A DNA stretch of 64,000 nt from an uncultured Gemmatimonadales bacterium. Its GTDB lineage: Bacteria; Gemmatimonadota; Gemmatimonadetes; Gemmatimonadales; GWC2-71-9. Below, one piece after another: positions 3,896-56,608 of the stretch. The translations under genes and the position numbers were made by a program. Every line of letters starts with the position of its first letter. Position 1 is the stretch's first letter. The notes under the pieces were generated by a model that worked only from the letters and a program-made list of their open reading frames with translations, searched no databases and was not told the origin of the DNA. Location: contig CAWGJN010000001.1 in the NCBI GenBank assembly GCA_963822925.1, positions 217,622 through 281,621 of the forward strand. Direction: 5' to 3'.

Positions 3896-5059
3896 TCACG
3901 CCACCAGCATTCGACCGTTGAGCTGGATCGGGCCCACGAAAGGAACACCTTCGAGCACCTGGAGCATCAGCGAGGGTCCGGCACCGAGGGCACGCTCGGC
4001 CCTGCGATCCCACACCAGTGCCTGCACCACGTAGATCCCGCGCGGCACGTTCATCTGCAACTCGACTTCAAGGGAGAACGGCCCGATCGACAGTTTCACG
4101 TCGCTCGTCGAGGTGCCGATCGCCGATACGAATGCTCCGGTCGAGGCGTTACGGACTAGCACGACCACGGGATCGATGTGCTCCGGAACCCCGTCCGCGC
4201 CGATGCTTCCACACAGGCCGATGCGAACCCGACCTCCCGAGCACACGTCACCTGTGCCCTCGAGCCGGAGTCGCTCGATCGTCGCCGGGGCATCGCCATG
4301 CGGGACGAAGCCACCGCGATCGGGGTCGAGGTAGTCGGCGATGCACTCCTGCGGTGTGCCCTGACGGACCACGGTACCGTGGTCCAGCAGCAGGGCGTGA
4401 GTGCACAACTCGGCGATGCGATCGAGCTGGTGCGAAACCATGACGACCGGGATGCCGGAGCGAACCAGCTCCCGCATCCGTGCGTATGCCTTCTGTTGGA
4501 ACGCGAGGTCGCCGACCGCCAGGACCTCGTCGACAAAGAGGACCTCGGGATCGAGGTGCGCGGCGATGGCGAAACCGAGCCGTGCATTCATGCCGCTCGA
4601 GTAGCGCTTCACCGGTGTGTCGATGAAGTCGGCGACCCCGGCGAATTCCACGATCTGGTCGAACTTTCGGCCGGTTTCCGCCGACGACATCCCCATGATC
4701 GCGCCCTGCAGGAAGAGGTTCTCGCGTCCAGTCAGGTCCTGGTGGAAACCCGCCGCCACCTCGATGAGCACGCCCTGCCGGCCGCGGACGCGAACGGTAC
4801 CGTGGGTGGGCCGCAGGATCCGGGTCAGCAGCTTGAGCAGCGTGGACTTGCCCGCCCCATTGGGTCCGATGACCCCGAGCGCCTCGCCGGGTAGCACCTC
4901 GAACGACACGTCACGCAACGCCCAGAACTCCCGCGCTGCGCCGCGCCGCGCCCTTCCGCGGCGCAGCAGCGCCGGGAGGAAATCGCGCAGGCTGTCGTGG
5001 TGTTCACCGCGGCGGAACCGCTTCCACACCTGTTCGCACCGCACGCCGGGGTCGGTCAT
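3896..5059 (-). CDS. ABC transporter ATP-binding protein, Wzt/TagH-like glycan exporter with extra C-terminal domain
   Basis: ORF 3896..5155 trimmed to ATG 5059 (MTDPGVRCEQVWKRF), which overlaps the permease stop (ATGA). Walker A GPNGAGKSTLLKLL, signature YSSGMNARLGF, Walker B LFVDEVLAVGD. About 170 extra C-terminal residues, as in Wzt-type proteins. Confidence 0.85.
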   Translation of the reverse strand: MTDPGVRCEQVWKRFRRGEHHDSLRDFLPALLRRGRARRGAAREFWALRDVSFEVLPGEALGVIGPNGAGKSTLLKLLTRILRPTHGTVRVRGRQGVLIEVAAGFHQDLTGRENLFLQGAIMGMSSAETGRKFDQIVEFAGVADFIDTPVKRYSSGMNARLGFAIAAHLDPEVLFVDEVLAVGDLAFQQKAYARMRELVRSGIPVVMVSHQLDRIAELCTHALLLDHGTVVRQGTPQECIADYLDPDRGGFVPHGDAPATIERLRLEGTGDVCSGGRVRIGLCGSIGADGVPEHIDPVVVLVRNASTGAFVSAIGTSTSDVKLSIGPFSLEVELQMNVPRGIYVVQALVWDRRAERALGAGPSLMLQVLEGVPFVGPIQLNGRMLVA

Positions 5060-5967
5060 ACGAACTCGGACAGATCCGGCTCGACGCGATGGAACGCGAG
5101 GGAGCTGACGAGCAGCCCGCCCAGCGCCCAGGCCGCGCTGTAGGCCAGGTACCACGGCGACCAGGCCGCGACGTCGCCTCGCGGGGAAGACGCGGCCAGC
5201 GGCAGGAGCAGGTTCTGACCCTCGAGCACTGCGAGCCGCATTCCCTCGAGCAGAGGTGCGAGGGGATTCAGCATGACGAGGTGCGCGCCGGTGGGGCCGA
5301 GCATCGCGGGCTCGTAGAACACAGGGGTGAAGAAGATGCCGAAGGTGAGCAGCACCTGCACGATGTACTTCACGTCACGGAAGAAGACGTTGGCACAGCT
5401 CAGGAGCAGCGCGATGGCCGTGGTGAGACAGAAGAGCAGGGCGAGGAGCAGCGGCAGCCACAACAGCCCGGTCGAGAGCGGCACGCCGAGCCATGGCGCC
5501 AGCGCGAAGAGAAGCAGGCTTCCGACGAGGGTATCCACACCCTGCGCGAGGACCGTGGCGATGGGAAGCATCTCACGGGGGAAGTACACCTTCGACACCA
5601 GGTTGCCGTTGGCGGCGAGGGAAGGCGTGGCCATCCCGATCGCGCCGGCGAAAAAGCCCCAGCCGAGGCCCTTGAGGGCGAGCGCGGCAACGGTCGTGCG
5701 GTCGAACGAGCCGGCCGTCATCTGTGCCATGGCGAACCGCACCAGCATCCCGGAAAGCACCACCAGCGCGGGCATGAACAATGCCCAGGCCGCGCCCAGT
5801 ACCGCCTGCTTGTAGCGGACGCGAAGATCCCGGATCACGAGCTGACGCAGGAGATTCCGATACCCTGACAATTCCGCGGCAATCTCGCGCAGCGCCGTGA
5901 CCATGGGAACGCTCTCCACGGCCTGCGGTGGTGGAACCGCCGCACCGGTCTGGTCCGTTGAGGTCAT
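5056..5967 (-). CDS. ABC-2 type transporter permease (Wzm-like)
   Basis: ORF 5056..6132 trimmed to ATG 5967 (MTSTDQTG...). Contains LVIRDLRVRYKQAVLGAAWALFMP, typical of ABC-2 permeases, and multiple hydrophobic helices. Coupled to the ATPase gene. Confidence 0.8.
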   Translation of the reverse strand: MTSTDQTGAAVPPPQAVESVPMVTALREIAAELSGYRNLLRQLVIRDLRVRYKQAVLGAAWALFMPALVVLSGMLVRFAMAQMTAGSFDRTTVAALALKGLGWGFFAGAIGMATPSLAANGNLVSKVYFPREMLPIATVLAQGVDTLVGSLLLFALAPWLGVPLSTGLLWLPLLLALLFCLTTAIALLLSCANVFFRDVKYIVQVLLTFGIFFTPVFYEPAMLGPTGAHLVMLNPLAPLLEGMRLAVLEGQNLLLPLAASSPRGDVAAWSPWYLAYSAAWALGGLLVSSLAFHRVEPDLSEFV

Positions 5968-7406: not shown

Positions 7407-8546
7407 TTAGCGGCGCCCGCCGCTGGTGCTGGCCATCTTGCCCGAAGGCGCCGAGCCGATTTCCTGGTCCTCGAGCGGCTTCTCACCGATCATGCGCAGG
7501 AACTCGTTCGGATCTGGCGATACCCGAAGGCACTCTTCCTGAGCGACCTCGCGATTCATGTACAACTGGTACAGTGAGCTGTTCATCGTCTGCATGCCGA
7601 ACTTCTGGCCGGCCTGCAAGGCGGACTGGATCTGGTGCACCTTGTCGTCGCGGATCAGCGCCCGGATCGCGGGCGTCACCACCATGATCTCGGTGGCCAT
7701 CACGCGACCCCGGCCGCGCGAGCGCGGCAGCAGCGTCTGGGTCAGCACGCCCTCGAGCACGAACGCCAGCTGGGCCCGCACCTGGGACTGCTGGCTCGAC
7801 GGGAACACGTCGATGATGCGGTTGATCGACTCCGCCGCCGAGTTGGTGTGCAGGGTCGCGAGAGCGAGGTGGCCGGTCTCGGCGATGGTGAGCGCCGCGG
7901 CGACCGTCTCGAGGTCTCGCATCTCTCCCACCAGAATAACGTCGGGATCCTCCCGAAGGCAGTACTTGAGGGCCGACGCAAAGCTCTTCGTGTCGGTGCC
8001 CACTTCGCGCTGGTTGACGATGCAGCTCTGGTGGCGGTGGATGAACTCGATCGGGTCCTCCACCGTAATGATGTGACCCTTCCGCTCCTTGTTGATCTTG
8101 TCGATGATCGCCGCGAGCGTCGTGGACTTGCCCGAGCCGGTGGGCCCGGTCACCAGGATGAGCCCGCGCGGACGCTCGGCCAGCTTGGCCACCACCGGGG
8201 GCAGGCCCAGCTCGCTGAAGGTGCGGACGTTGAACGGGATCATGCGGATGGCCACCGACACGCAGCCCCGCTGCTTGTAGACGTTGCCGCGGAAGCGGGC
8301 CAGGTTCTGGATGCCGAAAGAAAAGTCGAGCTCATCCTCGGTTTCGAACCGCTTCTTCTGGTTCTCGGTCAGCACCGAGTAGGCGAGCGAGAGCGTGTCC
8401 TTGGGATTCATGACGTCGCCACACGAATTCGCGTTCGTGATGTCGCCGTCCACGCGGAGCTTCGGCCGCTCGCCCGCAGTCAGGTGCAGGTCCGAGGCTT
8501 CCCGCTCGATCATCTCCTCAAGGAGCACCCGGAGGTTGACGCTCAT
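7407..8546 (-). CDS. pilT: Twitching-motility ATPase PilT
   Basis: ORF, 379 aa. Starts MSVNLRVLLEEMIEREASDLHL. Walker A GPTGSGKSTT. PilT-like length and layout. The start overlaps the pilB stop. Confidence 0.9.
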   Translation of the reverse strand: MSVNLRVLLEEMIEREASDLHLTAGERPKLRVDGDITNANSCGDVMNPKDTLSLAYSVLTENQKKRFETEDELDFSFGIQNLARFRGNVYKQRGCVSVAIRMIPFNVRTFSELGLPPVVAKLAERPRGLILVTGPTGSGKSTTLAAIIDKINKERKGHIITVEDPIEFIHRHQSCIVNQREVGTDTKSFASALKYCLREDPDVILVGEMRDLETVAAALTIAETGHLALATLHTNSAAESINRIIDVFPSSQQSQVRAQLAFVLEGVLTQTLLPRSRGRGRVMATEIMVVTPAIRALIRDDKVHQIQSALQAGQKFGMQTMNSSLYQLYMNREVAQEECLRVSPDPNEFLRMIGEKPLEDQEIGSAPSGKMASTSGGRR

Positions 8547-10258
8547 GCTGCGGTCTCCTTCACGACTTCTTCGAGTGTGGTAACGCCCTTCGCGACCTTC
8601 ATCATGCCGTCCATGCGCAGGGTAAGCATGCCCTCCGCCACTGCCGCGTCACGGAGCTCGGACGAGGCATCGCCCCGGAGGATCATGCGGCGCAGCGTGG
8701 GCGACAGATTCATCACCTCGTAAAGGCCTGCGCGTCCCTTGTAGCCCAGGCCGCCGCACGCATCGCACCCGCGGCCCTTCATGAACGGGATCGACCGGAA
8801 CTGCTCAATTTCTGTGCCCAGCGACGACAGCACGTCGTCGGGATAGCTCGTGGGCTCCTTGCAGGACTTGCAGATCCGGCGCACGAGCCGCTGGGCCACC
8901 ACCAGGTTCACGGCGCTCGCCACGTTGAAGGCCTCGAGCCCCATGTCAATCATACGGGTGACGGTGCTCGGCGCGTCGTTGGTATGCAGGGTCGAGAGTA
9001 CCAGGTGGCCGGTAAGGGCCGCCTTGATGGCGATGCTCCCCGTCTCCAGGTCTCGAATTTCGCCGATCATGATGATGTTGGGGTCCTGCCGGAGGAACGC
9101 CCTCAGCGCCGCGGCGAAGGTCAGCCCGATCTCGTTCCGCACCAGCACCTGGTTGATCCCCATGAGGTTGTACTCGACGGGGTCTTCCGCCGTCATGATG
9201 TTCGTCTCGATGGTGTTGATGCGCGAGAGCGCCGAGTAGAGCGTCGTCGTCTTGCCGGAACCCGTCGGACCGGTGACCAGCACCATGCCGTACGGATTGA
9301 GGATCGCTTTGAGCAGGTCCGCCTCGGCCTTGGGCTCGAACCCGAACTTGCTCAGGTCGAGCGTCAGGTTGCCCTTGTCGAGGATTCGCATCACGATCTT
9401 CTCGCCGAATAGCACCGGCAAGGTCGAGACGCGGAAGTCGATGACCCGGTTGCCCATCTTGAGCTTGAGGCGGCCGTCCTGCGGCACGCGGCGCTCGGCG
9501 ATATTGAGCTGGGACAGAATCTTGACGCGGCTCGTGAGGGCGGCCCGCAGCTTGAGCGGCGGCTTCATCACCTCGACCAGCGCGCCGTCGATGCGGTAGC
9601 GCACCCGGATCTCGTGCTCGAACGGCTCGATGTGGATGTCGCTGGCTCCGCGTCGCACCGCATCCGTGAGCAAGCCGTTGATCAGCTTGACCACCGGGGC
9701 GTCGTCGATCTGTTCCCGGGTCGCGACCTCGTCGGCCTGCTCCTCGAGCACCTCGACGTCGTCCTCCAGCCCTTCCATGTCCCGGATCAGGTTCTGGAGC
9801 TGCTGCTCGTTGCCGGCGTTTTCGTAGTGGCGCTCGATCAGGGCCCGGAGAGTCACCTCACCCGCGATGACGGGAAAGAGATCGTACCGGGTGATGAACT
9901 TGAGGTCGTCCAGGAGACCATGATCCGACGGGTCCGCCACCGCCACCGTGAGGGTACGACCCTCACGCTTGAGCGGGAGCACGATGTGCTTGGCGGCGAC
10001 TTCGCCGGGGATCAGTTTGAGGGTGCGGGGATCCACCTCGAACTTGGTCAGGTCGACCGCCGGCATCCGATGGTGCCGTGCCAGGAGCTTCGTCACCTCG
10101 ATTTCGGGGACGATACCCTGCTTGGCCACCACGTAGCTCAGCCGCAGGCGGGACGACTTGGCCTCGGCGACGGCCGCCGAAAGCTGGTCGCGAGTCAGCA
10201 GACCTTCCTGCAGAAGGAGGTCGCCGAGAAAGTTGCCGCCTACCGCCACTGACGCCAT
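8543..10258 (-). CDS. pilB: Type IV pilus assembly ATPase PilB
   Basis: ORF 8543..11290 trimmed to ATG at 10256-10258 (MASVAVGGNFLGDLLLQEGLL...), giving 571 aa. Walker A GPTGSGKTTTLY and a tetracysteine CKSC...CDAC motif. The upstream 340 codons of the ORF are Arg/Pro-rich and overlap the ComEA-like gene, so they are treated as spurious. Confidence 0.9.
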   Translation of the reverse strand: MASVAVGGNFLGDLLLQEGLLTRDQLSAAVAEAKSSRLRLSYVVAKQGIVPEIEVTKLLARHHRMPAVDLTKFEVDPRTLKLIPGEVAAKHIVLPLKREGRTLTVAVADPSDHGLLDDLKFITRYDLFPVIAGEVTLRALIERHYENAGNEQQLQNLIRDMEGLEDDVEVLEEQADEVATREQIDDAPVVKLINGLLTDAVRRGASDIHIEPFEHEIRVRYRIDGALVEVMKPPLKLRAALTSRVKILSQLNIAERRVPQDGRLKLKMGNRVIDFRVSTLPVLFGEKIVMRILDKGNLTLDLSKFGFEPKAEADLLKAILNPYGMVLVTGPTGSGKTTTLYSALSRINTIETNIMTAEDPVEYNLMGINQVLVRNEIGLTFAAALRAFLRQDPNIIMIGEIRDLETGSIAIKAALTGHLVLSTLHTNDAPSTVTRMIDMGLEAFNVASAVNLVVAQRLVRRICKSCKEPTSYPDDVLSSLGTEIEQFRSIPFMKGRGCDACGGLGYKGRAGLYEVMNLSPTLRRMILRGDASSELRDAAVAEGMLTLRMDGMMKVAKGVTTLEEVVKETAA

Positions 10259-35981: not shown

Positions 35982-37158
35982 TTACGCCTCGATGATCAGC
36001 TCCCGCTGGGCCCCGGCGGGGGTCACGAAGGCCTCGCCCGGGGTCAGGTACATGTTCACTTCGCTCCGCACCCCGAACCGGCCGGCAAGATAGATCCCCG
36101 GCTCGACCGAAAAGCCGGTTCCGGCCAGCAGTTGCCGGTCGTCATGGGTCTCGTAGTCGTCCAGGTGCGGTCCCGACCCGTGCAGCCGGTGGTCGATGGA
36201 GTGCCCCGTCCGGTGGACGAACGCACTCGCCGAACCCGGCGGCGGTGATCACGCCACGGGACACCCGGTCCACCTCGAACCCACGGATCGGGCGTCCCGC
36301 CGACCACCCCGACTGCACGAACTCGATCGCCGCATCCCGGGCATCGCGGACCGTCTTCCACACCTTCTGCACGTCGGTCGGCGGCCGGCGCCCGCTGAAG
36401 CCCATCCAGGTCTGGTCAGCGTAGACGGCGCCAAGCCGGCGCCCACCCCACAGGTCCAGCAGCACCACTTCGTCCCGCGCCAGCGCCCGGTCGTCTCCCG
36501 CGCGCGGCTCATAGTGCGGATTGGCGGCGTTCGGCCCGAAGCCGACGATCGGCGGGTGATCGAAATCGAGTCCGCCAGCGCGGATCGCATCGATGACTTC
36601 CTGCTGGAGCGCACTCTCGGTGAGCCCGGTACCACCGGCCGTGACCGCGCGTCGCAGGGCCTGTTGCGCCACGCGCGCCAGGACTGCCGCCGCGGCAAGA
36701 TGATCGGCCAGGTCGTCGGCACTCCAGGTGGAGGCGAACCGGGTCACCAGCGGTGCCGACGGCACCACCGTGGCGCCAAGCTTCTCGAGCAGCTGCACCA
36801 CGCCACTCGGCACCCGGTCGAGGTATGGCACCGCATCGTCGACCGCCACTTCCATAGCGACACGCTTTCCGCCGACCACGGCGCGGAGCGCCGCATGCAG
36901 TTCCTCCCAGCGGGAGTAGGGCATGATGCGCCCGGGGAAACCGGCCACCGACTGGAGTTCGATCCGGTGCGCCACGGCCACCGCCTCGCCGGTGCGTGGC
37001 AGGTAGACGAACAGCCGTCGACTGCCCATGCCGCCAATGCCGAGCACCTGGCCCAGCACCGGGTTTACGCCCTGGAAGTCGTAGAGCAACCATCCATCGG
37101 CCCCCGCCACCTCGAGCGCCGCGGCCAGCTCGGCACGATCCGGCGTCACCAGGGTCAT
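35982..37158 (-). pseudogene. M24-family metallopeptidase (Xaa-Pro aminopeptidase-like), interrupted by one frameshift
   Basis: ORF 36142..37218, trimmed to ATG 37158 (MTLVTPDRAEL), is good to ...VITAAGFGE. A different frame continues FVHRTGHSIDHRLHGSGPHLDDYETHDDRQLLAGTGFSVEPGIYLAGRFGVRSEVNMYL...ELIIEA to TAA at 35982-35984. The junction is at about 36215-36232. Confidence 0.8.
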
Positions 37159-37784
37159 CGATACCCTTCCGCCTCGGCCCAATGCCACACACAGACCACG
37201 TCGCCCCGTGAGCGACAACGGTCGTGCGTCATCGCCCCTTCCATTCCCGCGAGCAGTCGCAGCAGTTCGGCCAGCATCGCTCCGATGAAGCCACAGGCCC
37301 CGCCATCGGGCATCGCCGCGATCGTAAGTGGCTCGGCAACACGCGCTTCCACGGCTCTCCCGGCGCCGCGGAGTTCGACCCCAAGGGTGCGGGACGCCAC
37401 GCGCGACGCGGTGCGGAATCCCATCCGCCGGCTCATACCTCCCGGTGCCACCTTGATCAATGCGCGCGCGCCGCGCCCGGCCGCCTTGGCGGCATGACGC
37501 GCCGCCCGACGGCCGGCATCGGCAAAGGCGAGCTGAGCATCGACCCGCCGCCCGACCAGCCTGATCACGCCAAGCGCTTCGTCCTGCGGGACTTGTTCTC
37601 CCCGCTCCACCGCTTCCTCGTAGCGTTCGATCTGGGCGGCGACCGTTTCGCTCAGGCCGAAGCGCTTGGCCACCATCTCGCTGGCCAGTTCCTCGAGCCC
37701 ATCATCGAGTGGGGCGTCGAGGTTTCGCAGCGCCTGGAGAAGGCTGAGCGGAATCAGGGCGGGGACGGTGGACCGTGCTGTCAT
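37155..37784 (-). CDS. V4R (4-vinyl-reductase-type) small-molecule-binding domain protein
   Basis: ORF 37155..38444 trimmed to ATG 37784 (209 aa); the upstream part is Arg/Pro-rich and antisense to the DUF92 gene. The C-terminal GGACGFIGAMLAELLRLLAG...THDRCRSRGDVVCVWHW fits the V4R Cys pattern. The stop overlaps the M24 gene start (ATGA). Confidence 0.55.
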   Translation of the reverse strand: MTARSTVPALIPLSLLQALRNLDAPLDDGLEELASEMVAKRFGLSETVAAQIERYEEAVERGEQVPQDEALGVIRLVGRRVDAQLAFADAGRRAARHAAKAAGRGARALIKVAPGGMSRRMGFRTASRVASRTLGVELRGAGRAVEARVAEPLTIAAMPDGGACGFIGAMLAELLRLLAGMEGAMTHDRCRSRGDVVCVWHWAEAEGYR

Positions 37785-37869
37785 GTGATGGCGATCACAA
37801 AGTAATCGACGGGCATTCCCCTCTCTAGGGTGCTTGCGCCGTGACCGGGCAGGCGGGGACATTGGCCAC

Positions 37870-38655
37870 ATGAAGCCTGACCCCCTGATATCGGTGCTGG
37901 TAGCGGTAGCGCTTTCGGCGGGGGGATGGGCGGCGAGGGCCCTGACCGGCACGGGCGCCCTGGCCGCTGGCCTTGTCGGTATTGCGGTGCTCTCTGGAGC
38001 GGGATGGCCCGGCGCCGCGGTGCTCGGTGCATTCTTCATCCTGAGCAGTGCGATCGGCCGGATCAGTCGACGCCGGGTGGCTGTCGGCGGCGACGGCAAG
38101 GGAGAGCGGCGGGATTCCTGGCAAGTGCTGGCGAACGGAGGATTCGCCGCACTGGGCGCGGTGCTCGCCGGCCGCGACATGGCCCTCGCACTCTGGGTAG
38201 TTACCGGGAGCCTGGCTGCCGCCGGCGCGGACACCTGGGCCACTGCGATCGGGACGCTGAGTCGCCGTCTGCCGCGATTGCTCCTGGTCGGCCGCCCGGT
38301 ACCCGCCGGCACCAACGGGGGTATGACCCTCCTCGGTACGGCAGGCGCCATGCTTGGTGCGGCCGTCGTCAGTGCGGCGGGCGCGTTTGCTTCCGGCATG
38401 CTGCTTCTCCTGCCGTGGGGGATCGCGATTGGCAGCGCCGGCATGGCGTTCGATTCGCTGCTGGGGGCAACGCTGCAGGGCCGTTTTCACTGCCCGGCCT
38501 GCGGAGTCGACAGCGAGTGGCGCGTGCATCGGTGCGGCAACCGGACGACACGTACCGGAGGCCTGGCATGGCTTACCAACGATGGAGTGAACGCGGCGAC
38601 TACGGCGGCAAGCGCCCTCGCCGGCTGGCTGGCGTGGCACTGTGCCTTTCCCTGA
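37870..38655 (+). CDS. DUF92 (TMEM19/VTE6-type) integral membrane protein
   Basis: ORF 37834..38655 trimmed to ATG 37870. Family-like motifs RRDSWQVLANGGFAAL, GADTWATAIGTLS and GTNGGMTLLGTAGAMLGA. C-terminal CPAC...HRC zinc-ribbon-like segment. Confidence 0.7.
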   Translation: MKPDPLISVLVAVALSAGGWAARALTGTGALAAGLVGIAVLSGAGWPGAAVLGAFFILSSAIGRISRRRVAVGGDGKGERRDSWQVLANGGFAALGAVLAGRDMALALWVVTGSLAAAGADTWATAIGTLSRRLPRLLLVGRPVPAGTNGGMTLLGTAGAMLGAAVVSAAGAFASGMLLLLPWGIAIGSAGMAFDSLLGATLQGRFHCPACGVDSEWRVHRCGNRTTRTGGLAWLTNDGVNAATTAASALAGWLAWHCAFP

Positions 38656-38671
38656 CCCGCGCTGCCCTGTG

Positions 38672-39877
38672 ATGCTGCCCGTCAAATCCTCTGCGTGTGT
38701 CGACGCACTCATCATCGGCGCCGGCCCCGCCGGCAGTGCCTCCGCCACACTGCTCGCCGAGGCGGGCTGGCGGGTACTGGCGATCGATCGCGCCACATTT
38801 CCCCGCGAGAAGCCCTGCTCCGAGTACATGAGTCCCGAGTCGGTGCGGATGCTCGACCGGCTGGGCGTCACAGCCGAACTCTGCTCGGCGGGCGCAGCGT
38901 CGCTCAGCGGCTCCAGCGTCACCGCCGCGCGCGGCGCCCGGCTGGTGGGTCGCTTTCCGGAGGGTCAGGGCCTGTCCATCGCGCGGCGCGAACTCGACCA
39001 TGCCCTGGTGCGCGCCGCTCGCGCCCGCGGCGTGGACGTGCTGGAGGGAACATCGTTCGAGCGCCTCATCGTGGAGGATGGTCGCGTCGCCGGCGCGCTG
39101 GTCCGCGGGCGTGACGGAGAGCCGCGGAGCATACGGGCTGCAATCACGATCGGCGCCGACGGCCTCCGGTCCCGGGTCGCCCGCGCCCTGGGCGGACAAC
39201 GTCTCGGATGGCCGGCCCGCATGGCCTTTGTCGCCCATGTCGAGGGCGTGCCCGCCATGGCCGACCGGGCCGAGATGCACGTGAGCGGGCAGGGATACGT
39301 CGGGCTCAACGCGATCGGTGGCGGCATCACCAATGTCGCGCTCGTGGTGCCGCAGGCACGCGCCGCGCTCGCCGCGGGCCGTGCCGAAGCGTACTTCATG
39401 GAGGAGCTGGATCGATTCCAGGGCGTACGCGGACGGGTGGAGGCGCGGCACATCGTGCGGGAGGTCCTTGTCACAGGACCATTCGCGGCCCGGGCCCGCC
39501 GCATTACCGTTCCCGGCGCCTTGCTGGCGGGTGACGCCGCCGACTTCTTCGACCCATTTACCGGTGAGGGCATCTGCGCGGCCCTTGTGGGCGCCGAGCT
39601 GGTGGCACAGAGCGTCGGGCACGCGCGGGGCGACCTGGCCGCCATCGATCGAGCCCTCACAGTCTACCGTCGCGCACGCTGGCGTCGGTTCGCCGGAAAG
39701 TGGGCGGTCGAGCGCCTCATCGGTTACTCGATGACGGTACCCGGACTCTTCGATCATGCCGTCGCCCGTATCGGCCGGCGGCGGGGCATGGCGGATACGC
39801 TCGTAGGCGTTACCGGCGCCGTGCTGCCGGCACGCGCGGTTCTCAATCCTTTCTTCCTCGCCCGGATGGTCCTGTGA
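38672..39877 (+). CDS. FAD-dependent oxidoreductase, geranylgeranyl reductase family
   Basis: ORF 38642..39877; ATG 38672 is preferred. Dinucleotide fold DALIIGAGPAGSASATLLAEAGWRVLAIDRATFPREKPCSEYM. GADGLRSRVA and GDAADFFDPFTGEGI are typical of the family. Confidence 0.8.
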   Translation: MLPVKSSACVDALIIGAGPAGSASATLLAEAGWRVLAIDRATFPREKPCSEYMSPESVRMLDRLGVTAELCSAGAASLSGSSVTAARGARLVGRFPEGQGLSIARRELDHALVRAARARGVDVLEGTSFERLIVEDGRVAGALVRGRDGEPRSIRAAITIGADGLRSRVARALGGQRLGWPARMAFVAHVEGVPAMADRAEMHVSGQGYVGLNAIGGGITNVALVVPQARAALAAGRAEAYFMEELDRFQGVRGRVEARHIVREVLVTGPFAARARRITVPGALLAGDAADFFDPFTGEGICAALVGAELVAQSVGHARGDLAAIDRALTVYRRARWRRFAGKWAVERLIGYSMTVPGLFDHAVARIGRRRGMADTLVGVTGAVLPARAVLNPFFLARMVL

Positions 39878-40356
39878 CCCAGAACGCCGTTGACCAGGCA
39901 CAGTTCCGCCAGCTGCTGGGCCGGTTCGCCACCGGAGTCACCGTGATCACTGCCCGCGACGCGGACGGGCGGCCACACGGCATGACCGCGAACAGCCTCG
40001 CCTCGGTGTCGCTCGAGCCCCCGCTGATCCTCCTGTCGATCGACCACGAGGCGTCCATGCACGGCCTGCTGGTCACGTCTCCCGTGTTCGCGGTGAACAT
40101 CCTGGCGAGCAACCAGGAAACCGTGAGCCGGCGCTTTGCCCAGGACCGGGAGGAGCGATTTGACGGGATCGGCTACCAGGAGAGCCCGCGGGGGCTCATC
40201 CTCCTCGACAGCGCCCTCGCGCACATCGAATGCGAGCGCGTCGCTACGCACGAAGCCGGCGATCATACCATCCTCGTGGGCCTCGTGGTGGCGGGCAATG
40301 CGAGCGACGGCCGTCCGCTCTGCTACTTCCGCGGCGGGTACGCGTCGCTGGCCTGA
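39874..40356 (+). CDS. Flavin reductase (FMN-binding split-barrel)
   Basis: GTG 39874 overlaps the previous stop (GTGA). FRQLLGRFATGVTVITARDADGRPHGMTANSLASVSLEPPLILLSI is the flavin reductase domain signature region. Confidence 0.85.
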   Translation: MTQNAVDQAQFRQLLGRFATGVTVITARDADGRPHGMTANSLASVSLEPPLILLSIDHEASMHGLLVTSPVFAVNILASNQETVSRRFAQDREERFDGIGYQESPRGLILLDSALAHIECERVATHEAGDHTILVGLVVAGNASDGRPLCYFRGGYASLA

Positions 40357-40359
40357 TCG

Positions 40360-41052
40360 ATGGCAACCCTCGCATTGTCGCCCATCGGGCACGAGCTGCT
40401 GGATGATCCCGGCGCGGACCCGGCGATTGTCACCGAGTCCTTCCGCAACCTGGCCCGCTCCAACTGGTGGTTCGGCGGCGCCGCGGCGGTGCGCTTCGGG
40501 CTGGCCCAGTTGATCCCTCGTGCGGCCCGCGGAACATCGCTCACGCTGCTCGACATCGGCACCGGGGTGGGCGACCTGCCCTGCAGTGCCGCGCGATGGG
40601 CGGCGCCGCGGGGCGTGCGGCTGCGCAGTGTCGGCCTGGAGCGCAGTCGCGTCGCCGCGTCGCTGGCGCGGCGGGGCGGATTGCCGAGCGTGGTCGGATG
40701 TGCCGGCGCACTGCCCTTCCGGGCCCGCAGCGTGGACATCGTGATGATGAGCCAGTTGATCCATCACCTGTCGCGCGACGCCGCCGTCGAGGTCATACGC
40801 GCCGCCGACCGCATCGCGCGCGTCGGGGTCGTTCTCGCCGACCTGCGGCGGAGCTCCCTGGCCGCGTTCGGTTTTCACATAGCGTCCGGGCTGCTCGGAT
40901 TCGACGCCGCCACCAGGGCCGATGGAGTCACCTCGGTGCGTCGGGGGTACCTGCCTCATGAACTCTCGGCGATGCTGCGCGACGCGGGAGTGACAGCGTC
41001 GGTGCGACGCCGGCCCGGCTTCCGGCTCGTCGCCGCGTGGCGCCCGAGCTGA
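40360..41052 (+). CDS. SAM-dependent methyltransferase
   Basis: ORF, 230 aa. Motif I LLDIGTGVGDL. Class I methyltransferase layout. Confidence 0.75.
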   Translation: MATLALSPIGHELLDDPGADPAIVTESFRNLARSNWWFGGAAAVRFGLAQLIPRAARGTSLTLLDIGTGVGDLPCSAARWAAPRGVRLRSVGLERSRVAASLARRGGLPSVVGCAGALPFRARSVDIVMMSQLIHHLSRDAAVEVIRAADRIARVGVVLADLRRSSLAAFGFHIASGLLGFDAATRADGVTSVRRGYLPHELSAMLRDAGVTASVRRRPGFRLVAAWRPS

Positions 41053-41528
41053 TGCGCACGGTCGACCGCGCCGTCATCCGCGCCCCAATGAACGACGCCT
41101 TTCGCGCCGCGTGGGATGTGGAACGCTGGCCCGAGCTGCTGCCCCACTACCGCTGGGTGCGCTTCCTCGACCGGCGGAACGATGGCGGCATGGTGGAGAT
41201 GTCCGCGAACCGTCCCTTCGGCCCTTTCGACTGGCCCACCTGGTGGGTGTCGGAGATGTGGATCGAGCCAGGCCGAAACGCCGTGCGCTATCGGCACGTC
41301 CGGGGCGTCACCAGCGGCATGGACGTCGAGTGGACGTTGCGGGACACCGCCGAGGGCGTGGATGTCTCGATCGTGCATGAATGGAGCGGCCCGTCATGGC
41401 CGCTCATCCGCCAGCCGGCCGCGGAGTGGGTAATCGGTCCGGTATTCGTGCATGGCATTGCGAGCCGCACGCTCGCCGGCCTCAAGCGCGCGATAGAGAG
41501 CGGAGCACAGGTGAAAGGAAAGACGTGA
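41052..41528 (+). CDS. SRPBCC-superfamily protein (polyketide cyclase/dehydrase and lipid-transport fold)
   Basis: ORF 41037..41528; ATG 41052 shares one base with the previous stop. The pattern VDRAVIRAPMNDAFRAAWDVERWPELLPHY...W is typical of SRPBCC/START-like proteins. Confidence 0.65.
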   Translation: MRTVDRAVIRAPMNDAFRAAWDVERWPELLPHYRWVRFLDRRNDGGMVEMSANRPFGPFDWPTWWVSEMWIEPGRNAVRYRHVRGVTSGMDVEWTLRDTAEGVDVSIVHEWSGPSWPLIRQPAAEWVIGPVFVHGIASRTLAGLKRAIESGAQVKGKT

Positions 41529-42772
41529 AGCCCAGGCGAGTCGTTATTACGGGCATCGGTGTCGTGACGCCGATAGGTACCGGGCGTGAAGCATTCTGGG
41601 AGGGGTTGCAGGGGCGAGTGTCGGCCGTGGGCCCGATCACGCGCTTCGACCCCTCGCCATTCCGCACCCGGATGGCGGGCGAGGTGCCTGACTTCCGCCC
41701 AGAGGATCACATCGAGGCCCGGCGGGTTCGCCGCTTCGACCGGTTTGCCCAGTTCGCAGTCGCGGCCACGCGCCTCGCCCTGGTCGACGCCGCAATCGAC
41801 CTGGCCCGCGAGGACGGCGAGCGGATCGGGTCGAGCATGGGAACGGCGCTCGCCGGGGTCGCCCGCGCCGAGGAGGAGCACGGCAATTACATGCGGGGCG
41901 GGCTTCGGGCGGTGGATCCGTCGCTGGCACTGGCCGTCTTCGGCGGGGCCGCGAGCTGCAACGTGGCCATCGAGTTCGGTCTCTCGGGGCCCAACACCAC
42001 GAACGGGATGAGCTGCGCCTCCGGCAGCATGGCCATCGGCGACGGCTTCCGTTCCATCGTCCGTGGCGACGCCGACATGATGGTGAGTGGCGGCACCGAG
42101 GCACCACTCGCCCCACTCTGTTTCGGCGCGTTCGCCGTAATCCGCGCGATGTCGACCCGCAACGATGATCCCGCCACCGCGAGCCGGCCGTTCGACCGAG
42201 AGCGGGACGGCTTCGTCATGGCGGAGGGCGCGGCGGTGCTGGTGCTGGAGGAGCGGGAGCGCGCACTCTCACGGGGCGCGCCGATCTACGCCGAGGTCTG
42301 CGGTTACGGCGTCACCAACGATGCTCATCACATGACGCAGCCGCGGCCCGACGGACGCCAGGCCTCGCGCGCCATGGCCCTCGCCCTGGCCGAGGCGCAC
42401 GTGGCGCCGGGCGAGATCGGCTACATCAACGCGCACGGCTCCTCGACCCCGCTCAACGACCCGACCGAGACGAGCGCGATCAAGCAGTTGTTCGGGGAGC
42501 ATGCGAGGGGCGTGGCGATCAGCGGAACCAAGGGGTACTACGGCCACGCACTCGGCGCGAGCGGCGCCTTCGAGGCGGCTATCTGCGCGCTGGCGAGCCA
42601 GCGCCGCTGGCTGCCCCCGACGGTCAACCTCACCACACCTGATCCGGCCTGCGATCTCTCCTACATCGCCGGGGAGGGACAGCTCGCCGACCCCGAATAC
42701 CTGCTCAGCAATTCATTCGGCTTTGGCGGGATCAACGCGGCGCTGGTATTTCGCCGACACGACGGCAGATAG
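41525..42772 (+). CDS. Beta-ketoacyl synthase, KAS II (FabF-like), catalytic Cys-His-His present
   Basis: ORF 41381..42772 trimmed to GTG 41525, which overlaps the previous stop. RRVVITGIGVVTPIG, NGMSCASGSMAIG (Cys), NDAHHMTQP (His), YINAHGSSTPLND (His) and GTKGYYGHALGASG. Confidence 0.9.
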   Translation: MKPRRVVITGIGVVTPIGTGREAFWEGLQGRVSAVGPITRFDPSPFRTRMAGEVPDFRPEDHIEARRVRRFDRFAQFAVAATRLALVDAAIDLAREDGERIGSSMGTALAGVARAEEEHGNYMRGGLRAVDPSLALAVFGGAASCNVAIEFGLSGPNTTNGMSCASGSMAIGDGFRSIVRGDADMMVSGGTEAPLAPLCFGAFAVIRAMSTRNDDPATASRPFDRERDGFVMAEGAAVLVLEERERALSRGAPIYAEVCGYGVTNDAHHMTQPRPDGRQASRAMALALAEAHVAPGEIGYINAHGSSTPLNDPTETSAIKQLFGEHARGVAISGTKGYYGHALGASGAFEAAICALASQRRWLPPTVNLTTPDPACDLSYIAGEGQLADPEYLLSNSFGFGGINAALVFRRHDGR

Positions 42773-42794
42773 ACTGCAGCGTGCACCGCAAATG

Positions 42795-42857
42795 GTGAAC
42801 GGTGAACTGGAGCACTGCCACCCGCTCACCGTTCACGGTTCACGGTTCACGGTTCAC
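42795..42857. repeat. Inverted heptad-repeat element (GTGAACS units), copy 1
   Basis: Left arm GTGAACG GTGAACT (42795-42808), a 14-nt spacer, then right arm CGCTCAC CGTTCAC GGTTCAC GGTTCAC GGTTCAC (42823-42857). It lies between the convergent KAS II and ccmD/ccmC genes and can fold as a hairpin. Confidence 0.7.
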
Positions 42858-42981
42858 GCTTTTCTTCGTTCCTCGCCCTCAGCATCAGCGTCAACGAGTA
42901 TCCTAGCAAGACCACGGCCACGATCGTGTACGCCACCAGCATGTAGCCTCCGTTGTCGGGCGGCTCAGGCAGCAGGAACAT
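42847..42981 (-). CDS. ccmD: Heme exporter protein D (CcmD)-like small membrane protein, 44 aa
   Basis: Below the ORF-track size cutoff. Manual translation gives MFLLPEPPDNGGYMLVAYTIVAVVLLGYSLTLMLRARNEEKREP. One TM helix followed by basic residues. It overlaps the ccmC stop by 17 nt and sits in the canonical ccmABCD position. Confidence 0.55.
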   Translation of the reverse strand: MFLLPEPPDNGGYMLVAYTIVAVVLLGYSLTLMLRARNEEKREP

Positions 42982-43723
42982 GGCGCGCCTCCCGAAGTTC
43001 GCGCAGCCGTCCCAGGCCGTAGCGCATCGTCACCAGCCCCAGGTAGAGCAGCGTGAACGCGGAGAGTGAGAAGAGCAGCGTGGCCACGAACGACCCCGGC
43101 ATGGTCGGGCCTTCGGGATTGAGCACCACGGGCCGTGGATGAATGGTGCGGAACATGTAGACGCTGAGGTGGATGAAGGGCACCAGCATGGCGCCGAGGA
43201 TGCCCACCACCGCGCTGTAGCGCGCGCGTTCCGCCGGGTCGAACATCGTGCGACGCAGCGTCAGGTAGCCCACAAACAGGAAGAACAGGAAAAGCGTGGA
43301 GGTGAGCCGGGGCTCCCACTGCCACCAGGTGCCCCAGATCGGCTTGCCCCACAGCGGCCCGGTGATGAGCACCAGTCCCGTCAGCACCACGCCCACCTCC
43401 GCCGATGCCTCGGCGAAGGTGTCGAGCCGCCGGTCGCCCAGCCACAGGTACAGCCCGCTGCAGATGCCCACGAGCCCGAATGCGAGGAAAGCGCACCATG
43501 CCGAGGGCACATGCACATACATGATCTTCTGCGCCAGCCCCTGCACCGCCTCCACCGGGGTGAACGAAATGGCCCGCGCATAGGCCGCCGCGACGCCCAC
43601 GAGCCCGATGACGGTGAGCACGCGCCCGGTCGCGAGCGCGCGGCGGGCTGCCACGCGTGAATCGCTACTCGTCAAAGAGGGCGGGAAAGACGAGGACACT
43701 GAGTGTGACGAAGGTGATGTCAT
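42965..43723 (-). CDS. ccmC: Heme exporter protein C (CcmC)
   Basis: ORF, 252 aa. VEAVQGLAQKIMYVHVPSAW and the tryptophan-rich WGKPIWGTWWQWEPRL (WWD-type motif). The true start may be internal (TTG 43675 or GTG 43654), because the ORF start overlaps ccmB by 59 nt. Confidence 0.85.
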   Translation of the reverse strand: MTSPSSHSVSSSFPPSLTSSDSRVAARRALATGRVLTVIGLVGVAAAYARAISFTPVEAVQGLAQKIMYVHVPSAWCAFLAFGLVGICSGLYLWLGDRRLDTFAEASAEVGVVLTGLVLITGPLWGKPIWGTWWQWEPRLTSTLFLFFLFVGYLTLRRTMFDPAERARYSAVVGILGAMLVPFIHLSVYMFRTIHPRPVVLNPEGPTMPGSFVATLLFSLSAFTLLYLGLVTMRYGLGRLRELREARHVPAA

Positions 43724-56539: not shown

Positions 56540-56608
56540 GTGAACGGTAAACAGTGAACCGTGAACGGGAGTCGGCACCCGTTTTACGGTTCACCGTTCA
56601 CTGTTTAC
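56540..56608. repeat. Inverted heptad-repeat element (GTGAACS/GTAAACA units), copy 2
   Basis: Left arm GTGAACG GTAAACA GTGAACC GTGAACG (56540-56567), a 13-nt spacer, then right arm GTTTTAC GGTTCAC CGTTCAC TGTTTAC (56581-56608). 56547-56567 can pair with 56588-56608 at 19 of 21 positions. It lies between the TPR gene stop and the M16 gene start. Confidence 0.7.

Follow-up and report, generated by a model that had tools for sequence, protein, structure and literature searches.

The genome of an uncultured soil Gemmatimonadales bacterium carries a six-gene operon that may be an undescribed way to make phenolic or quinone lipids. The operon lies at positions 37870-42772 of a 64,000-nucleotide stretch of DNA (hereafter the window; C1:217622-281621) from a 3.7-Mb metagenome-assembled genome that is 90.5% complete. 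It encodes a DUF92 membrane protein, a flavoprotein of the geranylgeranyl reductase (GGR) superfamily, a flavin reductase (FR), a methyltransferase (MT), an SRPBCC protein and a FabF-type β-ketoacyl synthase (KAS). The MT, the flavoprotein, the SRPBCC protein and the KAS form a portable core. By analogy with operons built around type III polyketide synthases (T3PKSs), we assign a probability of roughly 0.5 to the reading that this core would direct a phenolic or quinone lipid pathway in which a ketosynthase (KS) and a cyclase stand in place of the T3PKS. An earlier note on this DNA had pointed to an alkylated, methylated quinone-like lipid, which is a reasonable product class. A literature search on this gene combination, or on alkylresorcinols in Gemmatimonadetes, found nothing relevant.

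A tailoring pair probably shared with type III polyketide synthase operons

Operons that combine an MT, a FAD-dependent oxidoreductase and a T3PKS are widespread and include hidABC (hierridin, picocyanobacteria), the planctomycete mtr-fdo-t3pks, srsABC of Streptomyces griseus and pkqABC of mycobacteria and Streptomyces sp. MNU77. Such operons yield alkylresorcinols, from which methylation and hydroxylation give hierridins or alkylquinones (PMC8086630; PMC6836626; PMC10896814; PMC9927152). The order MT, flavoprotein, T3PKS is that of hidA, hidB and hidC (PMC8086630; PMC10896814). The four-gene cassette resembles hidABC, srsABC and pkqABC in pairing an MT of the PRK06202 type with a GGR-superfamily flavoprotein, and its Paenibacillus/Longimicrobiales version also keeps the order MT, flavoprotein, synthase. 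Unlike these operons, the cassette has an SRPBCC protein resembling aromatase/cyclases (ARO/CYCs) and a FabF-type KS in the slot of the T3PKS, and its Gemmatimonadales version has a different gene order (flavoprotein, FR, MT) that takes in a flavin reductase. The likeness to HidA/B, SrsB/C and PkqB/C was judged through Gemmatimonadota counterparts only.

The MT (40360-41052; 230 aa), a SAM-dependent class I enzyme, has a single strong model, NF004851 (PRK06202), which is also its best and is matched at 127 bits against a cut-off of 243, the next model scoring below 30. The same model is the sole strong match of the Paenibacillus MT (155 bits) and of T3PKS-adjacent MTs (147 and 201 bits). Cassette MTs score 127-155 bits on it and T3PKS-adjacent MTs 147-284 bits, and the only member above the cut-off in the phylum sample, the MT of G566 at 284 bits, lies directly 3' of a T3PKS. 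G030 holds both systems; there, the T3PKS-linked MT ranks second among the matches to the window MT (101 bits), and the next MT reaches 24 bits. Among 14 control genomes, NF004851 is matched only in Deinococcus radiodurans, and the T3PKS domain PF02797 only in D. radiodurans and Bacillus subtilis. Judged by these profile matches, the cassette MT appears to belong to the same family as the MTs that accompany T3PKSs and is not a CMAS-type alkene methyltransferase.

A search with PF02797 detects T3PKSs in 17 of 251 Gemmatimonadota genomes and none in the window's own genome; four of the genomes tallied (G391, G429, G486 and G511) carry an unpublished flag, and no specific claim depends on these four. 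The order MT, flavoprotein, T3PKS occurs in four of the 17, namely G477, G457, G551 and G575 (loci L356-L359; 95-98% complete). In each of these four cassette-less genomes, the window MT and flavoprotein match no protein of the genome better than the T3PKS-linked MT and flavoprotein, the flavoproteins aligning at 32-33% identity (E 1e-11 to 1e-17). All four lack the SRPBCC protein, and a second FabF is absent from G477 and G575, the two that were checked. Within a single genus (g49), G519, G478 and G526 carry the cassette without a T3PKS, whereas G457 and G477 carry a hid-like operon without the cassette. The pattern looks like one synthase displacing another beside the same tailoring pair and, as far as gene context and sequence matches indicate, the closest contextual relatives of the cassette flavoprotein and MT are the tailoring enzymes of T3PKS operons.

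A portable four-gene core at a conserved locus

All six genes are intact open reading frames (ORFs) on the plus strand, as established by ORF reading and by Pfam and NCBIfam family searches. Their junctions are, in gene order, a 16-nt gap, a GTGA overlap, a 3-nt gap, a 1-nt overlap (TGATG) and a second GTGA overlap, and reading of the sequence confirms the translationally coupled operon that the earlier note had described. Full-length orthologs of the flavoprotein with at least 42% identity occur in 33 of 40 relatives, in three families of the order, and in two more the gene is split by TGA stops. By far the commonest order, first in 20 retrieved loci and subsequently in about 220 loci from genomes and metagenomes (a count that takes in contig-truncated parts of the full arrangement), is a divergent M24 peptidase gene followed by DUF92, flavoprotein, FR, MT, SRPBCC and KAS and then by convergent ccmCBA. 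The conserved arrangement is present in well over 100 Gemmatimonadales loci. Because one gene order dominates the roughly 220 loci, chance juxtaposition is excluded, and the conservation of the neighbourhood that the earlier note had proposed to examine is plain.

A second arrangement, MT, flavoprotein, SRPBCC and KAS, was found at 50 loci, which include other Gemmatimonadota (Longimicrobiales and further lineages) and about 27 Paenibacillus species. Here the genes overlap by 4 nt, and neither DUF92 nor FR is present. In Longimicrobium the MT-flavoprotein pair lies at one locus and the SRPBCC-KAS pair at another. Across the phylum sample the SRPBCC protein, used as marker, occurs in 162 of 251 species genomes, with frequencies by family of 104/113 (f1), 42/52 (f2), 2/37 (f7) and 0/13 (f10). 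Almost all matches from a homologous-protein search and from two related-locus scans were Gemmatimonadales, and these do not show the range outside the phylum. In a Bacillota sample of 301 genomes, only the query genome itself contained the SRPBCC protein, and the Paenibacillus carriers surfaced only in a targeted scan. A plasmid tblastn search with the flavoprotein yielded only distant NAD(P)/FAD oxidoreductases, with no T3PKS or KS in the two neighbourhoods inspected, and a plasmid search with the SRPBCC protein yielded no match.

The locus itself persists where the core is missing. In two core-less genomes of the window's family, G477 (L386; G477:C2:1160000-1176000) and G457 (L387; G457:C8:45000-61000), the syntenic locus reads M24 (divergent), DUF92, FR and convergent ccmCBA. 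A third, G458 (L388; G458:C1:1612000-1628000), keeps DUF92, FR and ccmCBA and shows no M24 match in the fetched stretch; its DUF92 match is in two pieces. G519, a congener of G477 and G457, has all six genes at the syntenic locus. Since the DUF92-FR pair persists without the core and the core travels without DUF92-FR, the six genes are made up of a four-gene cassette and, interspersed with it, a resident DUF92-FR pair, and the earlier description of the six as one unit has to be revised. The portable core is the set of MT, GGR-superfamily flavoprotein, SRPBCC protein and FabF-type KAS. We infer that DUF92 (37870-38655; 261 aa; an integral membrane protein matching PF01940 at 167.8 bits over profile positions 2-250 of 251) belongs to the locus and that its role has no link, or just a loose one, to that of the core, and that FR is a resident which the flavoprotein recruited. 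In the core-less relatives, the DUF92-FR pair may fulfil a separate role; alternatively, FR in G477 and G457 may act with the flavoprotein linked to the T3PKS.

The ketosynthase and the cyclase-like protein

The KAS (41525-42772; 415 aa) passes the FabF equivalog model TIGR03150 (503.7 bits; cut-off 493.75) and keeps Cys164, His304, Lys336, His341 and the gating Phe400 within GFGG, all of which it shares with FabF (KAS II). The Cys-His-His triad (C164, H304, H341) is invariant, as the earlier note had held for the window copy. Unlike FabF, however, the cassette KAS is a second copy that is not linked to acpP. The housekeeping fabF (C6:70724-71944; 608 bits) directly follows acpP (C6:70481-70705) on another contig than the operon, and the operon KAS is 45% identical to this FabF. 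This acpP is the only canonical one in the genome, and of only two matches resembling an acyl carrier protein (ACP) genome-wide neither is near the operon. In the KAS tree, the cassette KASs form a long-branched clade with 100/100 support; the Paenibacillus copies fall within it, and the housekeeping FabFs of the same genomes fall outside. The acyl-pocket helix is also altered, with PxLALxVFGGAASC in exchange for the PFFVPM...I...AAG of FabF. The cassette KAS is a FabF-derived paralog and not the housekeeping FabF, an identity that the earlier note had named as fatal to its proposal and that the acpP-linked fabF and the separate clade dispose of.

The KAS gene is invariably directly downstream of the SRPBCC gene (41052-41528; 158 aa; PF03364 / PF10604). 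A profile of the SRPBCC family, searched against the PDB with hmmsearch, retrieves the ARO/CYCs BexL, WhiE-ORFVI and TcmN at E 2e-8 to 7e-7, and its sole other match is the RatA-like 1t17, at a weak E of 0.009. In the AF2 model (pLDDT 88), Foldseek ranks 1-6 are taken by TcmN and WhiE with TM 0.77-0.80. The equivalents of TcmN W28, Y35, W65 and S67 (W26, Y33, W65 and S67) are invariant in the family, as are R34 and R54. By sequence and by predicted fold, the SRPBCC protein is nearest to the TcmN/WhiE aromatase/cyclases. A complex prediction of KAS with the SRPBCC protein returned a score of 0.00, which gives no verdict and counts neither way.

The cassette thus shares with type II polyketide synthases (PKSs; the TcmN, WhiE-ORFVI and ZhuI systems) a KS of the FabF/KS-alpha superfamily that adjoins an SRPBCC protein with TcmN/WhiE as best sequence and fold matches. 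It departs from them in having a single KS that is nearer to FabF, no chain-length factor (CLF), no dedicated ACP and a methionine at the position equivalent to TcmN Arg69. A Pfam/NCBIfam scan of the operon's genes detected no ACP, ketoreductase, dehydratase, acyltransferase or thioesterase within it, in agreement with the earlier statement that it is not a standard fatty-acid, aryl-polyene or type II PKS cluster.

The same properties of the KAS bear on a fatty-acid explanation, in which the KAS would elongate an unusual acyl-ACP, the SRPBCC protein would be a dehydratase, isomerase or lipid chaperone, and the MT and flavoprotein would methylate and reduce or hydroxylate the acyl chain. BfaB/BfaA of 10-methyl fatty-acid synthesis would provide a functional analogy for the MT and flavoprotein. 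A KAS that passes the FabF equivalog cut-off, keeps all catalytic residues and has genuine FabFs as its nearest relatives in the PDB is what such a pathway would use, the lack of a CLF and of a dedicated ACP agrees with it, and the GGR-type Cys motif of the flavoprotein is compatible with C=C reduction. However, the MT appears to come from the family that accompanies T3PKSs and not from the CMAS type, and the solved sequence relatives of the SRPBCC protein, bar the weak 1t17, are polyketide aromatase/cyclases. Modification of fatty acids also leaves the within-genus swap with MT-flavoprotein-T3PKS operons unexplained. Further, entire families can dispense with the cassette (f7 and f10, as tallied above), which therefore does not belong to core lipid synthesis. 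We regard the fatty-acid explanation as unlikely.

The flavoprotein and its reductase

The flavoprotein (38672-39877; 401 aa) shares with geranylgeranyl reductases (ChlP/BchP, the archaeal DGGGPL reductase and MenJ) the FAD GxGxxG fold, a KPC cysteine after the first β-α-β unit and an FTGEG motif. Its family scores are, however, below cut-off for TIGR02032 (137.7 bits vs 158.8), MenJ (67.7 vs 700) and BchP-ChlP (63.9 vs 343), and the DGGGPL-reductase model also matches it. A (Y/F)xWxFP substrate-channel motif is a defining trait of the geranylgeranyl reductase family. At the site of this GGR motif (YxWxFP) and of the halogenase WxWxIP, the window flavoprotein carries GYVGLN. In an alignment of paralogs from related genomes, the site reads GYAWIFP or FYAWIFP (YAWIFP) in GGR-type paralogs (L377, L381, L385), WxWxIP in halogenase-type paralogs (L380a, L380b) and GDAAH in PHBH-type paralogs. 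Gemmatimonadales-type cassette flavoproteins have GY(V)G(L/M) and T3PKS-linked flavoproteins GYVG(L/V) at this site, and those of the Paenibacillus/Longimicrobiales-type cassette keep only the G(L/I/V)AP part. The GGR-type Cys near the flavin is present in the window flavoprotein (PREKPCSEY), and K(P/V/A)C is kept in all cassette and T3PKS-linked flavoproteins, mostly as KPC in both cassette types, as KAC in some type-A copies (L031, L037, L045, L035) and as KVC in the T3PKS-linked clade. The flavoprotein, whose contextual relatives are T3PKS tailoring enzymes and not isoprenoid genes, is probably a reduced-flavin-dependent hydroxylase resembling the HidB type.

The flavin reductase (39874-40356; 160 aa), of the HpaC/StyB type, has a full-length PF01613 domain (142.5 bits, positions 1-152 of 153) and falls below the cut-off of every equivalog model. 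Its gene overlaps that of the flavoprotein at GTGA, and the Paenibacillus-type cassette lacks it. The enzyme probably supplies the flavoprotein with reduced flavin.

The earlier note had placed the operon in an isoprenoid context (VTE6, ChlP, MenJ), and a corresponding explanation would make it a tailoring pathway for isoprenoids or prenylquinones, in which DUF92 would be a prenol-phosphate kinase, the flavoprotein a GGR/MenJ-type reductase that saturates an isoprene unit, the MT a methylase of quinones, the SRPBCC protein a quinone binder like Coq10, and the KAS incidental. DUF92 is indeed the family of VTE6, and the TIGR02032, MenJ and DGGGPL-reductase models all match the flavoprotein. Similarly, PF03364 also holds Coq10/RatA, some sources name relatives of the SRPBCC protein so, and UbiE/MenG models match the window MT weakly. 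However, the flavoprotein lacks the YxWxFP that the GGR-type paralogs of related genomes keep, and its scores fall short of TIGR02032 and far short of MenJ, which undermines the isoprenoid context. DUF92 is separable from the core, no prenyltransferase is present, and the SRPBCC profile favours ARO/CYCs (E 1e-8) over the RatA-like 1t17. Within the core, the KAS shows the strongest conservation and the tightest linkage, and its invariant position behind the SRPBCC gene means that it is not incidental. We consider isoprenoid tailoring very unlikely.

The best solved sequence relatives of the flavoprotein are halogenases (8zop, CndH 3e1t and ChlB4), followed by archaeal GGR. Together with the co-encoded FR, these matches would fit a two-component flavin-dependent halogenase that decorates a small polyketide or aryl lipid. 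In the alignment with CndH and 8zop, however, GWFWYIPL stands opposite GYVGLNAI and the Lys-bearing strand opposite SLSGSSVT, with the catalytic Lys facing Ser/Gly. Both hallmarks, WxWxIP and the catalytic Lys, are therefore missing, which is strongly against a halogenase, and other members of the phylum do have genuine WxWxIP paralogs, which are distinct proteins. The halogenase identity of the flavoprotein was rejected on these motifs, and we give a halogenating pathway almost no credence. The WxWxIP paralogs are two flavoproteins with the intact motif in one gene cluster of a Gemmatimonadales relative (L380; G040:C104:1-11186; ORFs 4621-5934 and 8289-9536, minus strand), which is a candidate halogenating biosynthetic gene cluster (BGC).

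Proposed pathway and evidence that weighs against it

In the proposed phenolic or quinone lipid pathway, the FabF-type KAS would take a fatty acyl-ACP from the housekeeping fatty acid synthase and extend it with malonyl-ACP without reduction. The ARO/CYC-like SRPBCC protein would bind the poly-β-keto chain and cyclise it to a resorcinol-type ring, which the HidB-like flavoprotein would hydroxylate with reduced flavin from the co-encoded FR and the PRK06202-type MT would methylate. The single Claisen condensation of the earlier note was an assumption, and several condensations would be needed if the T3PKS analogy holds. Monoalkylresorcinols are stated to be made solely by type III PKSs (PMC6836626). 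We tentatively suggest, as a bolder and on balance doubtful proposal, that a homodimeric FabF-type KS working on the housekeeping ACP, and guided by the ARO/CYC-like SRPBCC protein, iteratively builds and cyclises a poly-β-keto chain to an alkylresorcinol. This would be a third route, independent of both T3PKS and CLF, and its hydroxylated and methylated product would be a polyketide quinone or membrane-protective lipid in Gemmatimonadota and some Paenibacillus.

Several observations weigh against the replacement of a T3PKS by KS and cyclase. Four genomes (G030, G371, G021 and G496) hold both a T3PKS and the cassette; in the two of these that were inspected, the T3PKS has no adjacent flavoprotein (G030 and G371) and, in G371, no adjacent MT. 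The anti-correlation between cassette and T3PKS is confounded by phylogeny, and its counts are not independent. The KAS scores as a true FabF, and in the PDB FabFs match it better (406 bits) than the actinorhodin KS does (307 bits); the operon encodes no CLF, ACP or thioesterase. No precedent could be found for a lone FabF-type KS carrying out iterative non-reducing extension. In the SRPBCC family, the ARO/CYC arginine (TcmN R69) is replaced by an invariant Met69. The flavoprotein tree, which includes one ORF taken in the wrong frame (L358), is a polytomy with unresolved deep nodes and no resolved sister link to the T3PKS-linked clade, and other GGR-like paralogs match the flavoprotein at similar E-values; its kinship with the T3PKS-linked flavoproteins therefore rests on motif, context and best matches and not on a resolved clade.

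Partial cassettes count on the same side, as the modules are not strictly co-dependent. Genus g25 has DUF92-flavoprotein-FR-SRPBCC-KAS without the MT (L393, G383:C2:126000-142000), and G532 has DUF92-flavoprotein-FR-MT without SRPBCC-KAS (L394, G532:C14:145000-160000). In family f9 (L390-L392), MT-flavoprotein pairs occur in genomes with neither SRPBCC-KAS nor a T3PKS. The neighbours of the stand-alone MT-flavoprotein pairs (Longimicrobium and f9) and of the stand-alone SRPBCC-KAS pair (L088) include no alternative synthase and no conserved partner. The probability left over after the phenolic or quinone lipid pathway and its three competitors belongs to something else.

Genomic surroundings

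Upstream of the operon, a V4R-like gene and the gene of an M24 peptidase form a divergent minus-strand pair, and downstream lies the convergent ccmCBA. In this minus-strand stretch of the window (36142-37784), the M24 peptidase gene seems split between frames and is preceded by the V4R-like gene, an ORF of about 209 aa without a Pfam match. The divergent intergenic region between the minus-strand gene and DUF92 (37785-37869) is presumed to be the promoter region of the operon; a sigma-70 consensus scan of 37600-43000 found no match in it and no internal sigma-70-like promoter. The sole terminator-like match in the consensus scan (38012-38030) falls inside DUF92, and such matches are no more frequent than expected in shuffled sequence. 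Between the KAS gene and the convergent ccmC, a long, imperfect heptad-repeat hairpin (GTGAACG and its complement) followed by the T-rich CTTTTCTTC occupies 42795-42857 and is likely a bidirectional terminator. A further copy of the heptad-repeat hairpin is reported at 56540-56608.

The window also receives the end of another cluster. Seven KS domains in very long frames (1061-2448 aa) lie at G000:C1:183782-220275, which reaches window positions 1 to about 2700, and by its domain content this region is a large modular PKS (or PKS/NRPS) cluster. It was considered and rejected as the parent cluster of the operon, from which it is about 35 kb off and whose synteny is independent of the PKS. In some non-Gemmatimonadales lineages, an Omp85-like gene precedes the four-gene cassette and a gene for a DUF4126 membrane protein follows it (L090, 3084-4991 and 8640-9728; L308, 2437-4269), and an RpoD-like sigma-70 gene occurs farther downstream of the cassette in L088 and L090.

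Significance

The cassette is common in Gemmatimonadota, a major soil phylum, and is found as well in about 27 cultivable Paenibacillus species. BGC rules that demand a T3PKS, a CLF or an ACP miss it. Because cultured Paenibacillus strains carry the cassette, the hypothesis is directly testable. If true, the route through FabF and a cyclase would represent new enzymology for widespread membrane, antibiotic-tolerance and respiratory lipids.

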